IMG/VR virus record: IMGVR_UViG_3300045988_005604
Location: 1 to 5,651 of that record
Source: a virus
Reading direction: 5' to 3' (one strand)
Length of the DNA: 5,651 nt
Shown here: piece by piece, positions 1 through 5,651 of the stretch
Layout: the number at the start of each line of letters is the position of its first letter
Position numbering within the stretch: position 1 is the stretch's first letter
Made by a program: the position numbers and the translations under genes
Notes under the pieces: model-generated
The model's input: the letters and a program-made list of their open reading frames with translations, nothing else
Databases searched by the model: none
What the model was told of the DNA's origin: nothing

Positions 1-55
1 AATCGGCAGCGCACTACTCGGAATCGGCAAACAACTACTTCCAACAATCGCCGGA
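1..55. repeat. Terminal direct repeat, copy 1 (identical to 5597-5651); overlap of a circular genome, unit length 5,596 nt
   Basis: Base-by-base comparison: nt 1-55 (aatcggcagcgcactactcggaatcggcaaacaactacttccaacaatcgccgga) equal nt 5597-5651. The repeat lies inside an open reading frame that continues across the junction. Confidence 0.95.
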
Positions 56-835
56 GGACTCATAAACAAATTCCTAGGCGGGAATCTGATGGAAAGCAAT
101 GGAGGGAGCAGTCAGCACAACGAGAGTTCGAGCCAAGGAGGCGGATACAGCAGCGCCGCCAGCGGCGTAAACCGAGAGCAAAATCTGCAAGACTGGAACA
201 GTATGCTAGGGGCAATTCAAAGCAATATGCAAAGCCAGCAGAAGTTTAACCGTAAAAGCATGTTCGAGCAAATGGGCTATAACACCATGGCGGCAATCAC
301 TCAGGGTGTATATAACCAGATAAGTAACAACGCGGCGATGTCCTACAACAGCGCGCAGGCAGCCAAAAACAGAGCTTGGCAAGAGCAAATGAGCAATACA
401 GCTTATCAACGAGCTGTGGAAGATATGCGAAAAGCAGGCATCAACCCTATCTTAGCATATCAACAAGGCGGTGCGAGCACGCCAGGAGGCGCACAAGGCA
501 CTATCAGCGGGGCAAGTATGGGTCTCGCAAGCAGCAGTGCCGCAAATGCAAGCGCTCTCGGAGTAAGCCAGAACCACAACAACACATGGAGCAAAAGTGA
601 AAGCAACTGGTACAACGCCGCACAAGCAGTTGGAGACGCTACAAGCTGGTCGCACACAAGCGCAGACAAAGCGTTTAATGCATTCAAGGACGTCTTCAAC
701 GACCTCAGCAACCTAAACGGTGGCGTCGGCGGAGGTGCAGGGAGAAAACCGACCAAAGATGAACTCCAATACAAACCAGGAAGAGACTTTATCGGAAGCA
801 AAAACGTCGAATTTTGGAAAGGAAAAATTAAATAA
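1..835 (+). CDS. VP2: DNA pilot / minor capsid protein VP2, main part; the CDS starts at ATG 5583 and wraps across the circular junction (5583..5596 + 1..835, 282 aa)
   Basis: The frame is open from the window edge, with codons in register from nt 2 (IGSALLGIGKQLLPTIAGGLINKFLGGNL, then MESNGG...). Stop is TAA 833-835. The same frame begins at ATG 5583 (MGLAAIGSALLG...). It has a hydrophobic Gly/Ala/Leu N-terminus and a Gly/Ser/Ala/Asn/Gln-rich body. The motif MSNTAYQRAVEDMRKAGINPILAY (nt 389-460) is characteristic of gokushovirus VP2. The ATG at 89 in the ORF track is an internal Met. Confidence 0.9.
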   Translation, partial: IGSALLGIGKQLLPTIAGGLINKFLGGNLMESNGGSSQHNESSSQGGGYSSAASGVNREQNLQDWNSMLGAIQSNMQSQQKFNRKSMFEQMGYNTMAAITQGVYNQISNNAAMSYNSAQAAKNRAWQEQMSNTAYQRAVEDMRKAGINPILAYQQGGASTPGGAQGTISGASMGLASSSAANASALGVSQNHNNTWSKSESNWYNAAQAVGDATSWSHTSADKAFNAFKDVFNDLSNLNGGVGGGAGRKPTKDELQYKPGRDFIGSKNVEFWKGKIK

Positions 836-1855
836 ATGGGATGCAATAAACCGTTAATCCGGTTTTATGTACCTCATAACAGGGAGGCGAGCGGGCGAGT
901 GTACTCGCTCGCTTCTTTTAACGAGATACATAAGACCAAAATGAAGTATGAAGACCTGATGCGCCGCAAAGATGTAATGATGATACCGTGCGGACAATGC
1001 ACAGGATGCAAACTACGCAAACGCAAAGACTGGGCTACACGAATGGAGCTAGAAGCATACGGCCACAACAAGAAAAGCATCTGGTTTATCACGTTAACCT
1101 ATGATGACGACCATGTGCCAACACAGGACACGAAAACAGGGGAAATCTTCAAAGGAGGCGTGAACGTATGGAGAGGCGCCTCAGAGCGTCCCAGAACGGT
1201 GCAAACTTTAAGCGTAGAGGATGTCCAGTTATTCATAAAAAGGCTTAGAAAGGCCGTCAACGAGCCTCTCAGGTACTTTCTGGCAGGAGAGTACGGAGAT
1301 AACACCTCAAGACCACACTATCACATGATACTTTACGGGTGGTATCCAGACGACTTAAAGCCGATTCACAGACTGTCAAAGTTTGGACACTACACGAGCG
1401 ATAAACTGGTCAAAGTCTGGGGGCAAGGCACAGTTGATATAGCTCAAGCAACGCCGGAAACGTACAACTATGTAGCTGGGTATGTGACCAAGAAGCTATA
1501 CGGAAACGACAGAGACAGGTATAGGAAGATGGGGCTCATACCGCCATTCTGCGTGATGAGCCGAAAACCAGGACTTGGAGATACATGGTTTCAAGAAAAC
1601 CAGGAGCGACTCTGGCAGCAGGGATACATCCAGCTGACAAACGGCAAGAGAGCAGCCATTCCAGAGTATTATTGGCGAAAACTAGAAGCTGAAAATCCTG
1701 AAAAGGCGTGGAGAATCAAAAAGTACCGGCAAGAAAAAGCCATCGCATCCCTAATCGAAAGAAACATGGAAACTGACAAACAGTATGCCGAGCAACTGGC
1801 CGATAAAGAAGCAATCATGAAGAAGAAGATGTCTAAAGCAAAGGGCGTTTTTTAG
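836..1855 (+). CDS. VP4: Replication initiation protein VP4 (HUH rolling-circle endonuclease), 339 aa
   Basis: The ATG directly abuts the VP2 stop (TAAATG). RCR motif I is FITLTY (1085-1102). The HUH motif is RPHYHMILYG (HYH at 1316-1324). The catalytic Tyr motif is YVAGYVTKK (1469-1495). An N-terminal Cys cluster PCGQCTGC (989-1009) is typical of gokushovirus Rep proteins. Confidence 0.95.
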   Translation: MGCNKPLIRFYVPHNREASGRVYSLASFNEIHKTKMKYEDLMRRKDVMMIPCGQCTGCKLRKRKDWATRMELEAYGHNKKSIWFITLTYDDDHVPTQDTKTGEIFKGGVNVWRGASERPRTVQTLSVEDVQLFIKRLRKAVNEPLRYFLAGEYGDNTSRPHYHMILYGWYPDDLKPIHRLSKFGHYTSDKLVKVWGQGTVDIAQATPETYNYVAGYVTKKLYGNDRDRYRKMGLIPPFCVMSRKPGLGDTWFQENQERLWQQGYIQLTNGKRAAIPEYYWRKLEAENPEKAWRIKKYRQEKAIASLIERNMETDKQYAEQLADKEAIMKKKMSKAKGVF

Positions 1856-1864
1856 CTCTGGTGT

Positions 1865-1913
1865 CACTCAGCCAAGTAACTATCAAGTATAGATACTTGG
1901 CTGAGTGTTTTTT
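1865..1913 (+). terminator. Rho-independent terminator after VP4
   Basis: A perfect 14-bp stem pairs cactcagccaagta (1865-1878) with tacttggctgagtg (1894-1907). The loop can add 4 more pairs (ctat 1880-1883 with atag 1889-1892). TTTTTT (1908-1913) follows immediately, 10 nt after the VP4 stop. Confidence 0.8.
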
Positions 1914-1923
1914 ACGTTTATCA

Positions 1924-1966
1924 ACACGCGCGCGCACGCGCGCATAATTGCGCACGTACACGCACG
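1924..1966. repeat. Alternating purine-pyrimidine CG/CA tract with three CGCACG copies; Z-DNA-prone and hairpin-prone in ssDNA
   Basis: Perfect Pu/Py alternation runs over 1924-1946 (23 nt, acacgcgcgcgcacgcgcgcata) and 1949-1966 (18 nt, tgcgcacgtacacgcacg). CGCACG occurs at 1933, 1951 and 1961. Self-complementary CGCGCG blocks can fold on the single-stranded virion DNA. Confidence 0.85.
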
Positions 1967-2010
1967 ATTTTTATTATATTATTATTTATTTGTTGTAGTC
2001 GTAGTAGTAG
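1967..2010 (+). promoter_or_regulatory. A/T-only tract (1967-1991) followed by an in-register trinucleotide run TTG TTG TAG TCG TAG TAG TAG (1990-2010); candidate DNA-unwinding element plus DnaA-trio-like run
   Basis: 25 consecutive A/T bases are followed by four 5'-TAG-3' triplets in one register (1996, 2002, 2005, 2008), with one TCG interruption. GGAG and two tandem box-like 8-mers follow. The functional call is an inference by analogy with bacterial oriC. Confidence 0.4.
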
Positions 2011-2088
2011 GGAGTGTTGAAATGTTGAATACTATGAATTTCCATCCTTGGAACGATATTTTTTTGCTAATTTTAATGTTGATAATTT

Positions 2089-2097
2089 TGTGGATAA
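2089..2097 (-). promoter_or_regulatory. Perfect consensus DnaA box (TTATCCACA on the - strand; TGTGGATAA on +)
   Basis: Exact 9/9 match to the canonical DnaA box. The expected count in this genome is about 0.04 under uniform composition. It sits within the iteron array, 12 nt after the one-mismatch copy TGTTGATAA (2077-2085). Actual binding is untested. Confidence 0.55.
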
Positions 2098-2152
2098 CTT
2101 GTTGAATTGTTGAAAGTGTAGCAATATGCACAAAACCATTTGTGCAACTTTT

Positions 2153-2161
2153 TGTGGAAAA
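2153..2161 (-). promoter_or_regulatory. Second DnaA-box match (TTTTCCACA, fits the relaxed consensus TTWTNCACA)
   Basis: TGTGGAAAA on the + strand, in the same orientation as the box at 2089. A further one-mismatch box, ATATGCACA, lies on the + strand at 2124-2132. Confidence 0.4.
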
Positions 2162-2229
2162 CCTGTTGAAAGTGTTGAAAGTGTTGAAAATGTAACTAGA
2201 GGCAGTTCGGCAGCTAGCCGGAAAGTCAC

Positions 2230-2269
2230 GTCATGCTCTTCGTACGGCGCACCGCGCCTAGCGCATGAC
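2230..2269 (+). other. Compound GC-rich stem-loop in the non-coding region
   Basis: The outer 7-bp stem pairs gtcatgc (2230-2236) with gcatgac (2263-2269). The inner 5-bp stem pairs ggcgc (2246-2250) with gcgcc (2254-2258) around a 3-nt loop. No T-run follows, so it is not a classic terminator. Confidence 0.5.
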
Positions 2270-2278
2270 CTTCAATGC

Positions 2279-2322
2279 AAAATTCTTCTAAATTTCTTCA
2301 AAAAATCTTGAAAAAATCTTGA
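2279..2322. promoter_or_regulatory. Helically phased A-tracts and an 11-bp perfect tandem repeat (aaaaatcttga x2) upstream of promoter P1; curved-DNA / UP-element-like
   Basis: A-tracts start at 2279, 2290, 2300 and 2311, a spacing of 11, 10 and 11 bp. The tandem repeat is 2301-2311 and 2312-2322, and its second copy supplies the -35 TTGAC. Confidence 0.6.
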
Positions 2323-2347
2323 CTTTTTTCTAAAAATATGGTACAAT
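2319..2347 (+). promoter_or_regulatory. Promoter P1 (sigma70/sigmaA type, extended -10)
   Basis: -35 is TTGACT (2319-2324), followed by a 17-nt spacer. The TG of the extended -10 is at 2339-2340, and -10 is TACAAT (2342-2347). It lies about 30 nt upstream of the SD and ATG of the 61-aa ORF. Confidence 0.7.
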
Positions 2348-2375
2348 AAAATCACAGAAAGGAAAGGTGAATATC

Positions 2376-2561
2376 ATGGTACACTGCTACGAGATTCAAA
2401 GATTTGAAGAAAACGGAGACATAAATATTGTCCAATGGCTTAAGGAAGAACCGAAAGTCGCAAAACAAAAGCTTAAAGAATACGCAGAAAAAAATCCCGG
2501 CATATACTCGCTATACCAAGTTAAATACACGGCAAGCTGTTTCACGGTAAATGAAACTTGA
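2376..2561 (+). CDS. Hypothetical small protein, 61 aa (MVHCYEIQRFEENGDINIVQWLKEEPKVAKQKLKEYAEKNPGIYSLYQVKYTASCFTVNET)
   Basis: ATG 2376 is preceded by the SD-like aaaggaaaggtga (aggtga 2365-2370, 5-nt spacer), directly downstream of P1. The GTG at 2367 in the ORF track lies inside the SD and is less likely. No family is recognisable by eye. Confidence 0.6.
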   Translation: MVHCYEIQRFEENGDINIVQWLKEEPKVAKQKLKEYAEKNPGIYSLYQVKYTASCFTVNET

Positions 2562-2586
2562 CAAACCCTTTTTCCTTTGGTATAAC
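2558..2586 (+). promoter_or_regulatory. Promoter P2 (sigma70/sigmaA type, extended -10)
   Basis: -35 is TTGACA (2558-2563, overlapping the TGA stop of the 61-aa ORF), followed by a 17-nt spacer. TG is at 2578-2579 and -10 is TATAAC (2581-2586). Confidence 0.7.
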
Positions 2587-2666
2587 GTAAATAGTCAAGC
2601 AGCGCAGAAATGTGTTCAACAAACTCTGTTTATACAAAAATAACTTTATGAAAGAGGTGAACTGCC

Positions 2667-2771
2667 CTGACTCTCCAAGAAATCAAGACGCTGTTTGAAA
2701 ACATTCAGAAAATCCTGGCAATGCTGGACAAAATTTACCATGCAGTGACAGGCAACGATCCGGAGGCTTAA
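2667..2771 (+). CDS. Possible 34-codon ORF with a non-canonical CTG start (LTLQEIKTLFENIQKILAMLDKIYHAVTGNDPEA); speculative
   Basis: A near-perfect SD, GAGGTGA (2654-2660), sits 6 nt upstream of CTG 2667. The frame opens just after TGA 2658-2660 and ends at TAA 2769-2771, 1 nt before the next ATG. The only in-frame ATG (2721) has no SD. Confidence 0.2.
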   Translation: MTLQEIKTLFENIQKILAMLDKIYHAVTGNDPEA

Positions 2772-2772
2772 C

Positions 2773-3000
2773 ATGGAGAACAAACCTTGGAATGTAAGAG
2801 ACCAGACCGACGAGAACCTTATGCGGGAATTGACGAAAATCTACAAGGCAATAGACGCCACTTACAGTATGCTCAGAAAGGCCGCAACAATCGAAGACGC
2901 AAAATATTACGTTGACCTTGTGTTTCGCAAGAAGGCGGCAGCAAACAACATTGAGCTGGAAATTCTTAGGAGGGACATCAACCATGGCAAAGAGGAGTAA
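2773..3000 (+). CDS. Hypothetical protein, 75 aa, predicted helical and charged
   Basis: ATG 2773 has the SD GGAGG (2762-2766) with a 6-nt spacer. Its end overlaps the next gene by 17 nt, a compact arrangement typical of microviruses. No family is recognisable by eye. Confidence 0.6.
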   Translation: MENKPWNVRDQTDENLMRELTKIYKAIDATYSMLRKAATIEDAKYYVDLVFRKKAAANNIELEILRRDINHGKEE

Positions 3001-3103
3001 AGTGCGAAAATCCAAAGACGCAAAAATCTACAACAAGACCGCACGCAAGACCAAAGCCATTAACCTTAGCGGCGGCGCAATGAGAGGGGGCATCCGGCTG
3101 TGA
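2984..3103 (+). CDS. Small basic DNA-binding / packaging protein (phiX174 J-like, gokushovirus ORF8/VP8-like), 39 aa
   Basis: The sequence is MAKRSKVRKSKDAKIYNKTARKTKAINLSGGAMRGGIRL. 13 of 39 residues are K/R. The C-terminal MRGGIRL is, as I recall it, the conserved end of these gokushovirus proteins. SD AGGAGG (2968-2973) lies 10 nt upstream of ATG 2984. The longer ORF-track start at 2912 is unlikely. Confidence 0.8.
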   Translation: MAKRSKVRKSKDAKIYNKTARKTKAINLSGGAMRGGIRL

Positions 3104-3126
3104 GCACAGTATACGCAGGAGTAACA

Positions 3127-3198
3127 ATGGCGTGCATTGCGGCAGGCTTTGTCTTCATCGTCTTCGCAATCGACATCATCAAAGAATGGTTTAAATAA
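3127..3198 (+). CDS. Tiny hydrophobic (single transmembrane helix) peptide, 23 aa, or 32 aa from GTG 3100
   Basis: The sequence is MACIAAGFVFIVFAIDIIKEWFK. SD AGGAG (3117-3121) lies 5 nt before ATG 3127. An alternative in-frame GTG at 3100 overlaps the preceding stop as GTGA and has the G-rich SD gagggggg upstream, giving VSTVYAGVTMAC.... It fills the gap between two well-supported genes. Confidence 0.4.
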   Translation: MACIAAGFVFIVFAIDIIKEWFK

Positions 3199-3210
3199 GG
3201 AGAAAACCAT

Positions 3211-3447
3211 ATGAACGTATACGGAATTTTCGATAACTGCGTGATGGGCTATATCACCATCTTCACGGAACGTGACAACAAGGTGGCCGAACGCAATTTC
3301 AAAATCGCGCTGACTGATGAACGGAACATCATGAGCAAGACTCCGAGCGACTACCGGCTGGTAAAGCTGGCAAAGTTTGACGAGAAAACGGGTCTGTTTG
3401 AGAACGAAAAGGAGAACATCTACGATGGCGTATCGCTCGGTAAGTAA
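3211..3447 (+). CDS. VP5: VP5-like non-structural protein (ORF5 family, proposed role in ssDNA synthesis/packaging), 78 aa
   Basis: SD AAGGAG (3197-3202) lies 8 nt before ATG 3211. The pattern YGIFD...I.F...D.VAERNF....P.DY.LVKLAKFDEKTG matches my recollection of the conserved gokushovirus ORF5/VP5 signature. Its position directly upstream of VP3 and VP1 fits. Confidence 0.65.
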   Translation: MNVYGIFDNCVMGYITIFTERDNKVAERNFKIALTDERNIMSKTPSDYRLVKLAKFDEKTGLFENEKENIYDGVSLGK

Positions 3448-3904
3448 CTTCAGAGAGACTGCAACAGCAAAGCCCACAGAGGCCGGAGAGACCATCAGAC
3501 GGACATACCTTTGGCAGCTCAACGAGAAGGGCGAAAAGGTACTGACGCTTGACCAAATCATCGACCAGCAGGCGGAAATCGACAGCTATCTAGAAGAGAC
3601 CAAGCTTGAAAACATCATCCGCCGAACATCCATCGACCCTGACCTTGCGGCTAGACTGGTGCCAGACATAGGTGGCGGGCTTCAGGACGCAACTGAGATG
3701 CCGGAGAATCTTATGGAACTTCAGAACATCATGCTCCGGGCAGAGCAAATCTGGGATGAAATCCCAAAGGAAATCAAGCTCAAGTTTGATAATGACGTTG
3801 ACAAGTTCGTTGCAAGCTTTGGCACTATCGACTGGGCAAAAAAACTGGGCATCTATCAGGAAGAAGAGCTTGAAGAGCCTAAAAAGGAGGAAACCACTGA
3901 ATGA
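3425..3904 (+). CDS. VP3: Internal scaffolding protein VP3, 159 aa
   Basis: ATG 3425 has SD AAGGAG (3409-3414) and overlaps the end of VP5 by 23 nt. The acidic protein carries EMPENLMELQNIMLRAEQIWDEIPKEIKLKFDNDVDKFVASF, which resembles the gokushovirus scaffold motif (...P..I...F.N....F). Its stop overlaps the VP1 start as ATGA (3901-3904). The ORF-track start at 3377 lacks an SD. Confidence 0.8.
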   Translation: MAYRSVSNFRETATAKPTEAGETIRRTYLWQLNEKGEKVLTLDQIIDQQAEIDSYLEETKLENIIRRTSIDPDLAARLVPDIGGGLQDATEMPENLMELQNIMLRAEQIWDEIPKEIKLKFDNDVDKFVASFGTIDWAKKLGIYQEEELEEPKKEETTE

Positions 3905-5541
3905 ACAGGAACAAAGACGCAGGGTTTAACCAAGTTCCGCGACTGGACATTACGCGAAGTCGCTTCAAACGGCGGCAGGACGTAAAGCTCACGCTCAATG
4001 CTGGACAGCTTATTCCGTTCTATGTAGATGAAGTACTCCCGGGCGACACCTTCAGCATCGACCAAGCAGCAATTATCCGTATGACAACCCCTATCTTCCC
4101 GGTTATGGACAACTGCCACATGGATATTTACTACTTCAGCGTGCCGTGCCGTATCCTCTGGGAGCACTTTAAGCGCTTTATGGGTGAAAACGACTCTGGA
4201 CCGTGGGCCCTAATTCAAGAGTACACCATTCCACAGGTCAAAGTAACTGGCACAGCCGACAAGCCGGCACCTTATGAAGGAAGCATCATGGACTACATGG
4301 GCATTCCTACCAAGGTGAGCAAAGGAGCTGATAGTGCATTCAGCGTTAATGCACTGCCATTCAGAGCCTACGCTATGATTTGGCAGGAGTGGTTCCGAGA
4401 CCAGAACGTGGACAATCCGGCCATCAACAGCACCACGGACGCAACCGTAAACTATACGGACGATGAAACCAAGGGCATGGACGCAACAACTCCTGACCTT
4501 GAGTATATCCTTAAGAACGCATACACAGGCGGCAGACCACTGCCGGTAAATAAATACCACGACTACTTCACATCGGCTTTACCTTCCCCTCAGAAAAGCC
4601 CCAGCGTACAACTTCCATTAGAAGGAAACGCTCCGATATTCGGATACAAAGAAACCACAAGAACAAATATAAGCACTTCAGCGCTAATCGAAAATCTTAA
4701 AAACGAAAACAGCCCGCTCGGCGTTATGGGAACCAAACCATCCGGAGAAGAAGTGTTCCTGGGTGCAAGAATGGATAGAGTAACATCCGCAACGATCAAT
4801 CAGCTGAGGCAAGCATTCCAGGTACAGAAGTACTATGAACAGCTGGCACGAGGCGGCAGCCGCTACCGCGAGATGATTTACAGTTTGTTCCACACCAGGA
4901 TTTCGGACAAAACTGTACAGATTCCGGAATATCTGGGTGGTACGCGTATCACCATCAACATGAGTCAGGTCATCCAGACCAGCAGCACGACTACAGAGAG
5001 TCCGCAGGGCAACACCGCAGCAATAAGTGTTACGCCGTACAATGGCAGCATGTTCACCAAGAGCTTCGAAGAGCACGGCTATGTTATCGGAGTGTGTTGT
5101 ATCCGGCATGACCATACCTACCAGCAGGGCTTGGAGCGTATGTGGAGCCGCAAGACTAATCTGGATTTCTATTATCCCGTCTTCGCAAATCTGGGCGAGC
5201 AGGCCATTCTGAAAAAGGAGCTGTATCTCACTGGTACGAGCACCGACAATCAAGCCTTTGGATATCAGGAAGCTTGGGCAGAGTACCGGATGAAACCAAA
5301 CCGCATCAGCGGCAAGTTCCGGTCAAATGCAAAAGGAACTCTGGACAGCTGGCACTACGGCGACAACTACAAGGAGGTTCCGACCCTGAGTCAGGCATGG
5401 ATGAAGGAGGGAGACTCCGAAATTCAGAGGACTCTGGCCGTGGACAACGAGCCTCAGTTTATCATAGATACCGTCATCGACAATACGTCCGTAAGACCTA
5501 TGCCTATGTACAGCGTTCCGGGTCTCGTGGATCATCACTAA
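3901..5541 (+). CDS. VP1: Major capsid protein VP1 (phiX174 F-protein family), 546 aa
   Basis: SD AAGGAGG (3884-3890). The N-terminal region FNQVPRLDITRSRFKRRQDVKLTLNAGQLIPFYVDEVLPGDTF...YYFSVPCRILWEHFKRFMGEN, together with HDYFTSALPSPQK and TINQLRQAFQVQKYYEQLARGGSRY, are hallmark gokushovirus VP1 blocks. Confidence 0.97.
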   Translation: MNRNKDAGFNQVPRLDITRSRFKRRQDVKLTLNAGQLIPFYVDEVLPGDTFSIDQAAIIRMTTPIFPVMDNCHMDIYYFSVPCRILWEHFKRFMGENDSGPWALIQEYTIPQVKVTGTADKPAPYEGSIMDYMGIPTKVSKGADSAFSVNALPFRAYAMIWQEWFRDQNVDNPAINSTTDATVNYTDDETKGMDATTPDLEYILKNAYTGGRPLPVNKYHDYFTSALPSPQKSPSVQLPLEGNAPIFGYKETTRTNISTSALIENLKNENSPLGVMGTKPSGEEVFLGARMDRVTSATINQLRQAFQVQKYYEQLARGGSRYREMIYSLFHTRISDKTVQIPEYLGGTRITINMSQVIQTSSTTTESPQGNTAAISVTPYNGSMFTKSFEEHGYVIGVCCIRHDHTYQQGLERMWSRKTNLDFYYPVFANLGEQAILKKELYLTGTSTDNQAFGYQEAWAEYRMKPNRISGKFRSNAKGTLDSWHYGDNYKEVPTLSQAWMKEGDSEIQRTLAVDNEPQFIIDTVIDNTSVRPMPMYSVPGLVDHH

Positions 5542-5551
5542 GAAAGGGGGA

Positions 5552-5579
5552 AGCCCGGGGCAAAACCCCGGGCTATTTT
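5552..5579 (+). terminator. GC-rich hairpin plus short T-run between VP1 and VP2; leaky terminator/attenuator or translational structure
   Basis: A perfect 9-bp stem pairs agcccgggg (5552-5560) with ccccgggct (5566-5574) around the loop caaaa, followed by attttg. It lies 11 nt after the VP1 stop and 4 nt before the VP2 ATG at 5583. Confidence 0.5.
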
Positions 5580-5582
5580 GCT

Positions 5583-5651
5583 ATGGGATTAGCAGCAATC
5601 GGCAGCGCACTACTCGGAATCGGCAAACAACTACTTCCAACAATCGCCGGA
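5583..5651 (+). CDS. VP2: VP2 N-terminus (MGLAAIGSALLGIGKQLLPTIAG...), continuing at nt 1 on the circle
   Basis: ATG 5583 is the first ATG in the frame that is contiguous, through the 55-nt terminal repeat, with the 1-835 ORF. Confidence 0.8.
   Translation, partial: MGLAAIGSALLGIGKQLLPTIAG
5597..5651. repeat. Terminal direct repeat, copy 2 (identical to 1-55)
   Basis: Exact 55/55 identity with the window start. Confidence 0.95.

Follow-up and report, generated by a model that had tools for sequence, protein, structure and literature searches.

This report concerns a short module in the intergenic DNA of a gokushovirus, carried on IMG/VR record IMGVR_UViG_3300045988_005604 (positions 1 to 5,651, hereafter the window). 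The window is a complete circular genome of 5596 nt, with positions 1-55 repeated at 5597-5651. Downstream of the gene for the replication protein VP4 (Rep), the module matches, part for part, the basal unwinding system (BUS) of Firmicutes chromosome origins. As judged from sequence comparison, it is most likely a mimic of the host origin that recruits the host initiator DnaA and acts on the double-stranded replicative form of the phage. The parts of the module are listed below.

1967-1991, 25 nt: A/T-only tract (pure A/T), candidate DNA unwinding element (DUE)
1990-1995, + strand: TTGTTG in triplet register with the trios, itself not a NAN trio
1996-2010, + strand: DnaA-trio array TAG TCG TAG TAG TAG (5'-TAG-3' is 3'-GAT-5')
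2011-2014, 4 nt, + strand: G-rich spacer GGAG
2015-2022 and 2023-2031, + strand: tandem BUS boxes, a proximal 8-mer TGTTGAAA and a distal 9-mer TGTTGAATA (= TGTTGAAT(A))
2077-2116, + strand: second box cluster, TGTTGATAA, TGTGGATAA (perfect, 2089-2097), TGTTGAAT and TGTTGAAAG
2127-2146, between box clusters 2 and 3: inverted repeat, an 8-bp palindrome TGCACAAA-acca-TTTGTGCA
2153-2190, + strand: third box cluster, TGTGGAAAA-cc-TGTTGAAAG TGTTGAAAG TGTTGAAAA, a tandem repeat of period 9
Starts at 2077, 2089, 2100, 2108, 2153, 2164, 2173 and 2182, all + strand: box-like sites downstream of the tandem pair

A preliminary description of the window had placed the A/T tract, the triplets, GGAG and two boxes within 1967-2031, and all of these coordinates are correct; the perfect TGTGGATAA that it had announced further downstream stands in the second cluster. 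Ten box-like sites of the form TGT[TG]GA[AT]A lie on the + strand within 176 nt (2015-2190). Matches to TGTTGAAA with at most one mismatch number 17 window-wide, against 6.5 +/- 2.5 in shuffled sequence, and 0 of 200 shuffles reached 17. By itself a run of three TAG or TAA triplets is unremarkable, since 19% of dinucleotide shuffles have one. Three trios followed by a 2-6 nt spacer and by two tandem boxes were found together in 0 of 5000, and chance is excluded for this arrangement. Measured over 20, 30 or 40 nt, no duplex in the genome is less stable than the A/T tract, whose 20-mer free energy is -15.8 kcal/mol against a genome mean of -26.3 (standard deviation 2.7). Spo0A boxes (TGTCGAA) and cre sites were considered as readings of the TGTTGAA repeats and of an invariant 19-mer, TGTAGCAATATGCACAAAA (2117-2135), and were rejected because the key CG is absent from every copy.

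The BUS comprises DnaA-boxes 6 and 7, the GC cluster, the DnaA-trios and the A/T-rich element of B. subtilis incC (Richardson 2016/2019; Pelliciari 2021, PMC8287927). For comparison, the origins in Tables S1 and S2 of Pelliciari 2021, which are written 3'->5', were recast 5'->3' on the trio strand. Read in this way, B. subtilis, C. acetobutylicum, C. botulinum, C. difficile and E. coli share the order AT-rich DNA, TAG trios, G/C spacer and TGTGGATAA-type boxes (PMC8287927). The published origins (PMC8287927) and the phage are set out here in one notation, with the parts separated by strokes.

B. subtilis: TAG TAG AAG TAA TAG TAG / GGCC / TGTGGATT / TGTGGATAA
C. acetobutylicum: ...TAG TAG TAG / GGAG / TGTGGATT / TGTTGATAA
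C. botulinum: (TAG)6 / GGCT / TGTTGATA / TGTTAATAA
C. difficile R20291: ...TAG TAG TAG / GTGT / TGTTGATAA / TGTTAATAA
Window: TAG TCG TAG TAG TAG / GGAG / TGTTGAAA / TGTTGAATA
B. subtilis, other strand: TTATCCACA / AATCCACA / GGCC / CTACTATTACTTCTACTA / T-rich
Phage, minus strand: TATTCAACA / TTTCAACA / CTCC / CTACTACTACGACTA... / A/T tract

The earlier statement that order and orientation follow the basal unwinding layout of oriC is borne out by these tables and by three chromosomal origins treated below (L164, L182 and L190). Where at least three consecutive trios of the form 3'-G/A-A-T-5' are expected, TAG TAG TAG (2002-2010) adjoins the spacer and a further TAG stands at 1996-1998, all in the correct strand relation to TGTGGATAA. 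The distal box and the trios are 12 nt apart (the 4-nt GGAG plus the 8-mer proximal box), within the limit of 16 nt set for the better box and inside the modal range of 10-13; 12 is also the distance in B. subtilis, Listeria, S. aureus, C. botulinum and C. acetobutylicum and the usual Firmicutes value. The GGAG spacer is identical in C. acetobutylicum and equal in length in B. subtilis (GGCC) and C. botulinum (GGCT), and the 25 nt beyond the trios supply the A/T-rich element. BUS boxes are defined by at most two mismatches to TTATCCACA or to a species-specific motif, and mostly come as a tandem pair whose better member is the one farther from the trios; the pair in the window, three mismatches from the E. 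coli motif, falls within this definition via the clostridial variants. In five relatives (L001, L005-L007 and L110) the distal box is TGTTGATAA, one mismatch from consensus, and boxes of the TGTTGATAA type are predicted for the BUS of C. acetobutylicum, C. botulinum and C. difficile (PMC8287927). In predicted clostridial origins a T at box position 4 is nothing unusual. Opposite the trios, the complementary strand (CTACTACTA..., CTA repeats) has the TnnT repeats of the DnaD recognition element, a concept taken from PMC10201434.

The same layout was found in chromosomal origins of a Ruminococcus type. The Ruminococcus albus 7 entry reads TGTTGAAAA-ACC-TGTTGAAAA (Pelliciari Table S1, PMC8287927). 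Metagenomes were scanned for this R. albus 21-mer, which has no exact copy in the phage, and the BUS lay outside the search pattern. Loci L164, L182 and L190 (= L214) carry dnaA, a spacer of ~480 nt, dnaN and recF (NCBIfam equivalogs); their DnaN proteins are 91-95% identical to one another, and their taxonomy is taken from the R. albus 21-mer alone. Each has a BUS immediately before dnaN, at ~300 nt from the motif used in the search, with an A/T-rich tract beyond the trios, and TGTTGAAAAACCTGTTGAAAATGTTGATAA at the dnaA end. In the notation above they are as follows.

L182: TAG TAT TAG TAG TAG / TGTG / TGTTGAAA / a / TGTTGGAAA
L190: (TAG)5 / TGTG / TGTTGATT / t / TGTTGGAAA
L164: TAT TAT TAT TAG / GGGC / TGTTGATT / c / TGTTGAATA

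The best local alignment between the phage module and the dnaA-dnaN spacers falls on the BUS, with 31/36 positions identical in L182 and a score of 45 against 22 +/- 2.9 in shuffles, and the phage trio array aligns to the trio arrays of L182 and L190. The preliminary description had cautioned that the two trio-adjacent boxes differ from consensus at two positions. They do deviate, but the count is three from TGTGGATAA, and the same two sequences are exact BUS boxes in the chromosomes, TGTTGAAA as the proximal box of L182 and TGTTGAATA as the distal box of L164. The third phage box cluster, TGTGGAAAACCTGTTGAAAGTGTTGA, aligns at 22/24 positions with the dnaA-proximal cluster TGTTGAAAAACCTGTTGAAAATGTTGA of these origins, and TTTG directly precedes the first TAG in L182 and L190, where the phage has TTGTTG. 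Phage and chromosome share the order distal cluster, BUS boxes, spacer, trios and A/T tract in the same orientation, so the candidate-host comparison left the box and trio orientation compatible with the layout. Also shared are the box variants TGTTGAAA, TGTTGAATA and TGTTGATAA, the ...AAAACC TGTTGAAA motif, a 4-nt spacer and TAG trios. Unlike the chromosomal origins, the phage module spans ~230 nt rather than ~480 nt, its boxes are packed more tightly, and its spacer is GGAG instead of TGTG or GGGC. Because part order, boxes and BUS alignment agree, the module (1967-2190) is a compressed look-alike of a Ruminococcus-type dnaA-dnaN origin.

A Ruminococcus-like member of the Clostridia is the likely host by this comparison, and the strong Shine-Dalgarno sequences and extended -10 promoters of the window fit a Firmicutes host. 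Ruminococcus-type DnaA (L190 865-2241, L182 6360-7736, and L164) reads IGDAL-NKNHSTM in the region of the domain IV DNA-reading helix, where the E. coli and B. subtilis proteins presumably read IGxxFGGRDHTTV; this difference may be related to the TGTTGA-type boxes. The invariant 19-mer was searched in 596 Gb of genomes and gave 7 matches, with ~4-9 expected by chance. One match was a phage contig in a 'Prevotella' metagenome-assembled genome (MAG), and the others were intergenic in Oscillospirales MAGs and one Methylococcaceae. These matches were rejected as host evidence because their number equals the chance expectation and their flanks are dissimilar. In five of the loci (L072 and L075-L078, from Saccharofermentans, Ruminococcus and Ruminococcaceae MAGs) the exact 19-mer stands intergenically, 30-45 nt upstream of the promoters of unrelated genes.

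Conservation of the module was assessed in 114 unique related genomes, including a subset of 80 loci chosen by VP4 similarity alone. The module is present in 107 of the 114 gut gokushovirus genomes, and clean loss was seen in none of the other seven. It is present in 75 of the 80 VP4-chosen loci; the remaining five are truncated contigs, contigs that end inside the module, and one aberrant 8.8-kb contig. The apparent deletions in L099 and L119 do not count as absence because their junctions coincide with linear contig ends, that is, with assembly breaks inside the repeats. In L136 the module is present with its trio register disturbed by 2 nt. The preliminary description had named absence or scrambling of the arrangement in close relatives as a refutation; it was neither scrambled nor clearly lost in any informative relative. 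Among GenBank phage records the module is found only in gut Gokushovirinae (34 records). Eight GenBank gokushoviruses from human, pig and monkey faeces, ~80% identical overall, have it in common and differ in the DNA downstream.

Within the module, conservation is uneven. In an alignment of 70 sequences, whose selection by the nearby 19-mer inflates absolute conservation and leaves the contrast between neighbouring segments standing, column conservation is 96% in the trios and 95% in the tandem boxes, against 74% in the A/T tract and 71% in an adjoining GC block. In the same alignment TTGTTG is invariant (70/70), the middle A is invariant in trios 1, 3, 4 and 5, third bases change from G to A only, and no indels occur; trio 2 varies among TAG, TCG, CAG, ACG and CCG. 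Nearly all relatives have an A/T tract, 13-28 nt long, ahead of the trios, and over 104 unique modules 784 boxes point one way and 1 the other. At homologous positions of the second cluster, clades B and C carry TGTTGAAAA or TGTGGAAAA, and box variants appear to be interchangeable there. The third box cluster is duplicated in L131.

The module does not co-vary with any phage protein. Module identity to the window is 96-97% where VP4 is 43%, VP1 50% and VP2 39% identical (VP4 is 43-44% identical in L009, L012 and L062), and 75-82% where VP4 is 33% identical. Nor does it track VP5, which is 25% identical in L062. In L009 the module is 96% identical in nucleotides, with VP5 at 83% in amino acids, VP4 at 43% and VP1 at 50%; L062 has only the module in common with the window (97%), and the genomes are mosaic. 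Since the module stays constant while VP4, VP1, VP2 and VP5 diverge, the factor that binds it would be conserved and encoded by the host, not by the phage. Transfer of the cassette from one phage lineage to another is evident.

On which form of the DNA does the module act? The preliminary description had emphasized the virion strand. In four genomes, however, the module is inverted (L118, L133, L134 and L135). The unit from the A/T tract to the last box is exactly inverted between unchanged flanks in L118 and MG945447, and in KT264784 and KX513876 it is both inverted and located between VP2 and VP4. In these genomes CTA repeats and TTTCAACA come to lie on the coding strand. As single-stranded DNA (ssDNA), positions 1960-2200 fold with -14.7 kcal/mol, against -13.9 +/- 2.9 for shuffled sequence (z -0.26), and no box in this fold, the perfect TGTGGATAA included, lies in a stem. 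A complementary-strand origin, on which DnaA or DnaD bound to virion ssDNA would assemble a primosome to prime the minus strand, is improbable on this evidence. It would account for the trio strand being the coding, presumably packaged, strand in 103 of 107 genomes; trios are recognised as a single strand (PMC8287927), and ssDNA phages need a host priming site. Yet loading of DnaA onto trios needs adjacent double-stranded boxes (PMC8287927), and the boxes here are unpaired. Single-strand origins are moreover orientation-dependent, and the strongly and suitably folded elements lie outside the module, at 1865-1907 and 2230-2269. Because inversions occur and the module is unstructured as ssDNA, a strand-specific role on virion DNA appears unlikely, and with it the earlier suggestion that DnaA-box hairpins (the ABC primosome) prime the complementary strand. 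A role on the double-stranded replicative form fits the observations.

The array could instead be a DnaA sink or sensor that binds DnaA on the multicopy replicative form without firing, so that host initiation is shut down (by the classical inc effect of additional oriC box clusters, or in a datA-like way) or the downstream promoter (2319-2347) is coupled to DnaA-ATP status. With ten co-oriented boxes in 176 nt, and a module placed between the terminator-like hairpin of VP4 and the strong promoter TTGACT-17-TGgTACAAT, this reading has some appeal; titration would be orientation-independent, and any DnaA-binding module on a multicopy circle would be expected to titrate DnaA. We nevertheless consider it unlikely as the whole explanation. 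It needs boxes only, and leaves the near-invariant trio array in its fixed register, the fixed 4-nt spacer, the 8+9 box format and the A/T tract unexplained, all of which pertain specifically to opening of the duplex. A datA-like element would share the box cluster, and the trios, fixed spacer and A/T tract are compatible with titration and not needed by it. Because the module sits elsewhere in L134 and L135, between VP2 and VP4, a fixed relationship to the promoter is not conserved. The repeats could also be iterons for a phage protein (Rep/VP4 or the small DNA-binding VP5) that resemble DnaA boxes by coincidence. They do lie 110-330 nt from a conserved hairpin that may be the Rep nick site, and VP5 falls in a PHROG annotated as DNA-binding. 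This idea is very hard to sustain: the repeats do not co-vary with VP4 or VP5, as the module identities above attest, TGTGGATAA, TGTGGAAAA and TGTTGAAAA swap at homologous positions, and these variants, together with the spacer and trios, are also seen in chromosomal origins without phage genes. That the module is a functionless passenger, either host origin DNA captured recently or a product of trinucleotide slippage, can be given almost no credence. It resembles host origin DNA, and short triplet runs arise as easily as the shuffles indicate. It is, however, the most conserved segment of size-limited 5.5-kb genomes, it has been kept across lineages with Rep 33-95% identical from human, pig, monkey and other faeces, its trio register is free of indels in the 70 sequences, and it persisted after inversion and relocation.

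The reading preferred here remains that of a host-origin mimic. Host DnaA would occupy the ten co-oriented boxes on the replicative form, and the tandem boxes of 2015-2031, with 4 nt between them and the trios, would seed a DnaA-ATP filament onto the TAG trios. The filament would stretch and open the duplex into the adjoining 25-nt A/T tract. With a CTA-repeat strand that resembles the DnaD recognition element (TnnT repeats), the open region would let DnaD, DnaB, DnaI-DnaC and primase start synthesis without phage Rep. The replicative form would thereby be amplified or carried, and competition with the host oriC for DnaA could not be avoided. The comparisons establish the layout of the module, its departure from chance, its likeness to real origins, its extreme conservation and horizontal spread, its indifference to orientation and its lack of structure as ssDNA. 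DnaA binding, opening, helicase loading and a biological role are what we infer from these likenesses. It is quite probable that the module recruits DnaA and is competent for opening; that the full chain, Rep-independent initiation included, takes place is favoured with less assurance. Any particular biological role (Rep-independent initiation, carriage or DnaA capture) is proposed more cautiously still. A larger picture, which we regard as speculative, is that these phages are dual replicons that combine Rep-driven rolling circle replication with a mobile ~230-bp host-origin cassette for a DnaA-dependent, plasmid-like carrier state in Ruminococcus-like hosts; the cassette would be exchanged between lineages, its sequence would report the host, and BUS-type mimicry could be an unrecognised class of phage origin.

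Several points weigh against the mimic. In about half of the genomes trio 2 reads TCG and so departs from the NAN rule, and the adequacy of the trio-proximal boxes rests on their occurrence in predicted clostridial origins. In B. subtilis, oriC functions on a plasmid only with box clusters to either side of dnaA, so a single 230-bp module may be insufficient as an origin. Nor is it established that a rolling-circle phage whose Rep is intact needs another way to initiate. The host is likely and not proven: no prophage was found by the 19-mer search of 596 Gb of genomes, no CRISPR link to a host was obtained, and the phage contig in the 'Prevotella' MAG is weak host evidence either way.

All genes of the window lie on the + strand. 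The genome and the elements next to the module are laid out as follows.

5583 wrapping to 835, +: VP2, pilot protein
836-1855, +: VP4, Rep, intact (Pfam REP_ORF2-G2P, HUH motif PHYHMILY)
1856-2366: untranslated gap, which holds the module directly after the T-run hairpin downstream of VP4
1860-1907, +: GGTGTCA, then a hairpin with a 19-bp stem and loop motif CTATCAAG (inverted repeat), then a T-run
1925-1966, 42 nt: G+C-rich block of alternating purine and pyrimidine (39/41 steps), Z-DNA-prone, bordering the A/T tract
Between the untranslated gap and VP5, +: small open reading frames (ORFs)
3211-3447, +: VP5
Ending 3904, +: VP3, scaffold protein
3901-5541, +: VP1, capsid protein

The module thus lies between VP4 and small phage ORFs, whereas oriC is chromosomal and flanked by dnaA/dnaN in Firmicutes. 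The phage genome encodes no theta initiator gene, an Rfam scan of the window gave nothing relevant, and BLAST of the intergenic region against plasmids gave no match. The hairpin at 1860-1907, outside the BUS, is a candidate terminator of VP4 and/or rolling-circle nick site, and it is kept in the centroid ssDNA fold. Its stems are wholly different between clades A, B and C (co-variation), and the loop CTATCAAG is kept (also in L009, L018, L045, L111 and L136). The reverse complement of the loop motif, ACTTGATA, is what we take to be the core of the phiX174 origin nick region, and the strand of the candidate nick motif at 1860-1910 is puzzling. A coupling of BUS and hairpin was considered and not relied on, the two being adjacent in the window, clade C and L135 and separate in L118 and L133. 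The alternation at 1925-1966 is kept in clades A and B despite sequence drift and is absent in clade C. An upstream inverted box, TTATCAACA (1918-1926), which in ssDNA could pair with a box, was set aside because relatives do not conserve it.

Arms of the palindrome at 2127-2146 hold DnaA-box-like TGTGCA on both strands. In clade A its stem is invariant and its loop variable, and clade B has a different palindrome, cgtca-aaa-tgacg, in the same place, which points to a cruciform or to the binding site of a dimeric protein. Downstream of the module, 2198-2275 is G+C-rich and strongly structured as ssDNA (hairpin arms 2230-2239 and 2260-2269), and has no Rfam match; it may be an origin for the complementary strand or a small RNA. 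The same position is taken in relatives by either of two unrelated alternatives. Four 11-nt repeats (AAAAnTCTTnA) lead into the strong promoter at 2319-2347 (the whole spanning 2279-2347). A second promoter-like site, TTGACA-17-TGgTATAAC, lies at ~2559-2590 and is followed by a conserved untranslated stretch in common with KT264789 (2556-2650).

Full-text searches found no literature linking Microviridae or gokushoviruses with DnaA boxes or trios, and none describing DnaA-trios in phages. Elements of this type are known; what is new is that a rolling-circle ssDNA phage has a complete BUS, which is mobile among phage lineages and matches the host dialect. Such modules may also occur more widely. 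The pattern (TAG)3-N3-14-TGTGGATAA is found in 79 viral contigs against 28 for an inverted-box control, and among the 79 are ~18 larger phage contigs whose BUS is of textbook form (IMG/VR, 9-160 kb; L338/L351/L398, L349/L359/L378, L355/L379, L356, L362, L374, L383, L388 and L410). Its parts are A/T-rich DNA, (TAG)3-7, a G/C spacer of 4 nt and tandem TGTGGATA(A)TGTGGATAA; the flanks are free of dnaA, and the genes nearby are those of phages (SU10 capsid, cell-wall hydrolase). A search by trios alone also matched many large viral contigs, which proved to be coding low-complexity repeats without boxes. Because canonical BUS-like modules occur in double-stranded DNA phage contigs as well, BUS mimicry is perhaps a wider class of phage origin.

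If the reading is true, this is, as far as was found, the first virus with a complete module of DnaA boxes, DnaA-trios and unwinding element. It would imply direct use or capture of the master initiator of the host, and a second initiation mode on the replicative form, which is unexpected on a rolling-circle ssDNA phage. It would offer a testable explanation of why gokushoviruses persist in gut communities over the long term, and the match to the origin dialect of the host (TGTTGA-type boxes) would make the module a host predictor from sequence for uncultured microviruses. Genetic work on gut Clostridia that resist manipulation would gain a candidate origin of ~230 bp, minimised by nature. The DnaA-trio/BUS concept would be extended beyond chromosomes, with selection keeping register and spacing.

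How does the module compare with known replicons? The Rep iterons of CRESS-DNA viruses and geminiviruses are likewise short, directly repeated and close to a conserved hairpin, in replicons that are small and have an HUH Rep. Those iterons co-vary with their Rep, and the phage repeats do not. The P1 oriR, pSC101, F, RK2 and R6K origins are also extrachromosomal, with DnaA boxes adjoining an A/T-rich region. They require their own iteron-binding initiator, with DnaA as an accessory, whereas the phage encodes no theta initiator and its repeats are themselves DnaA-type boxes; we know of no description of these plasmid origins with DnaA-trios in BUS register. The ABC-primosome 'A site' of Masai and Arai, reportedly a DnaA box in the duplex stem of an ssDNA hairpin, resembles the present proposal as a case of a small replicon that uses host priming machinery via a DnaA box. 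It differs in that the phage boxes lie outside ssDNA stems and the module is found in either orientation. Unlike bacterial BUS regions, the phage module is on a rolling-circle ssDNA phage without dnaA/dnaN flanks, one of its trios is TCG, and most of its boxes have T at position 4 (TGTTGA). With the B. subtilis BUS it nonetheless shares every part, their order and strand relationship, the 8+9 tandem boxes, the 4-nt spacer and the 12-nt distance of the distal box.

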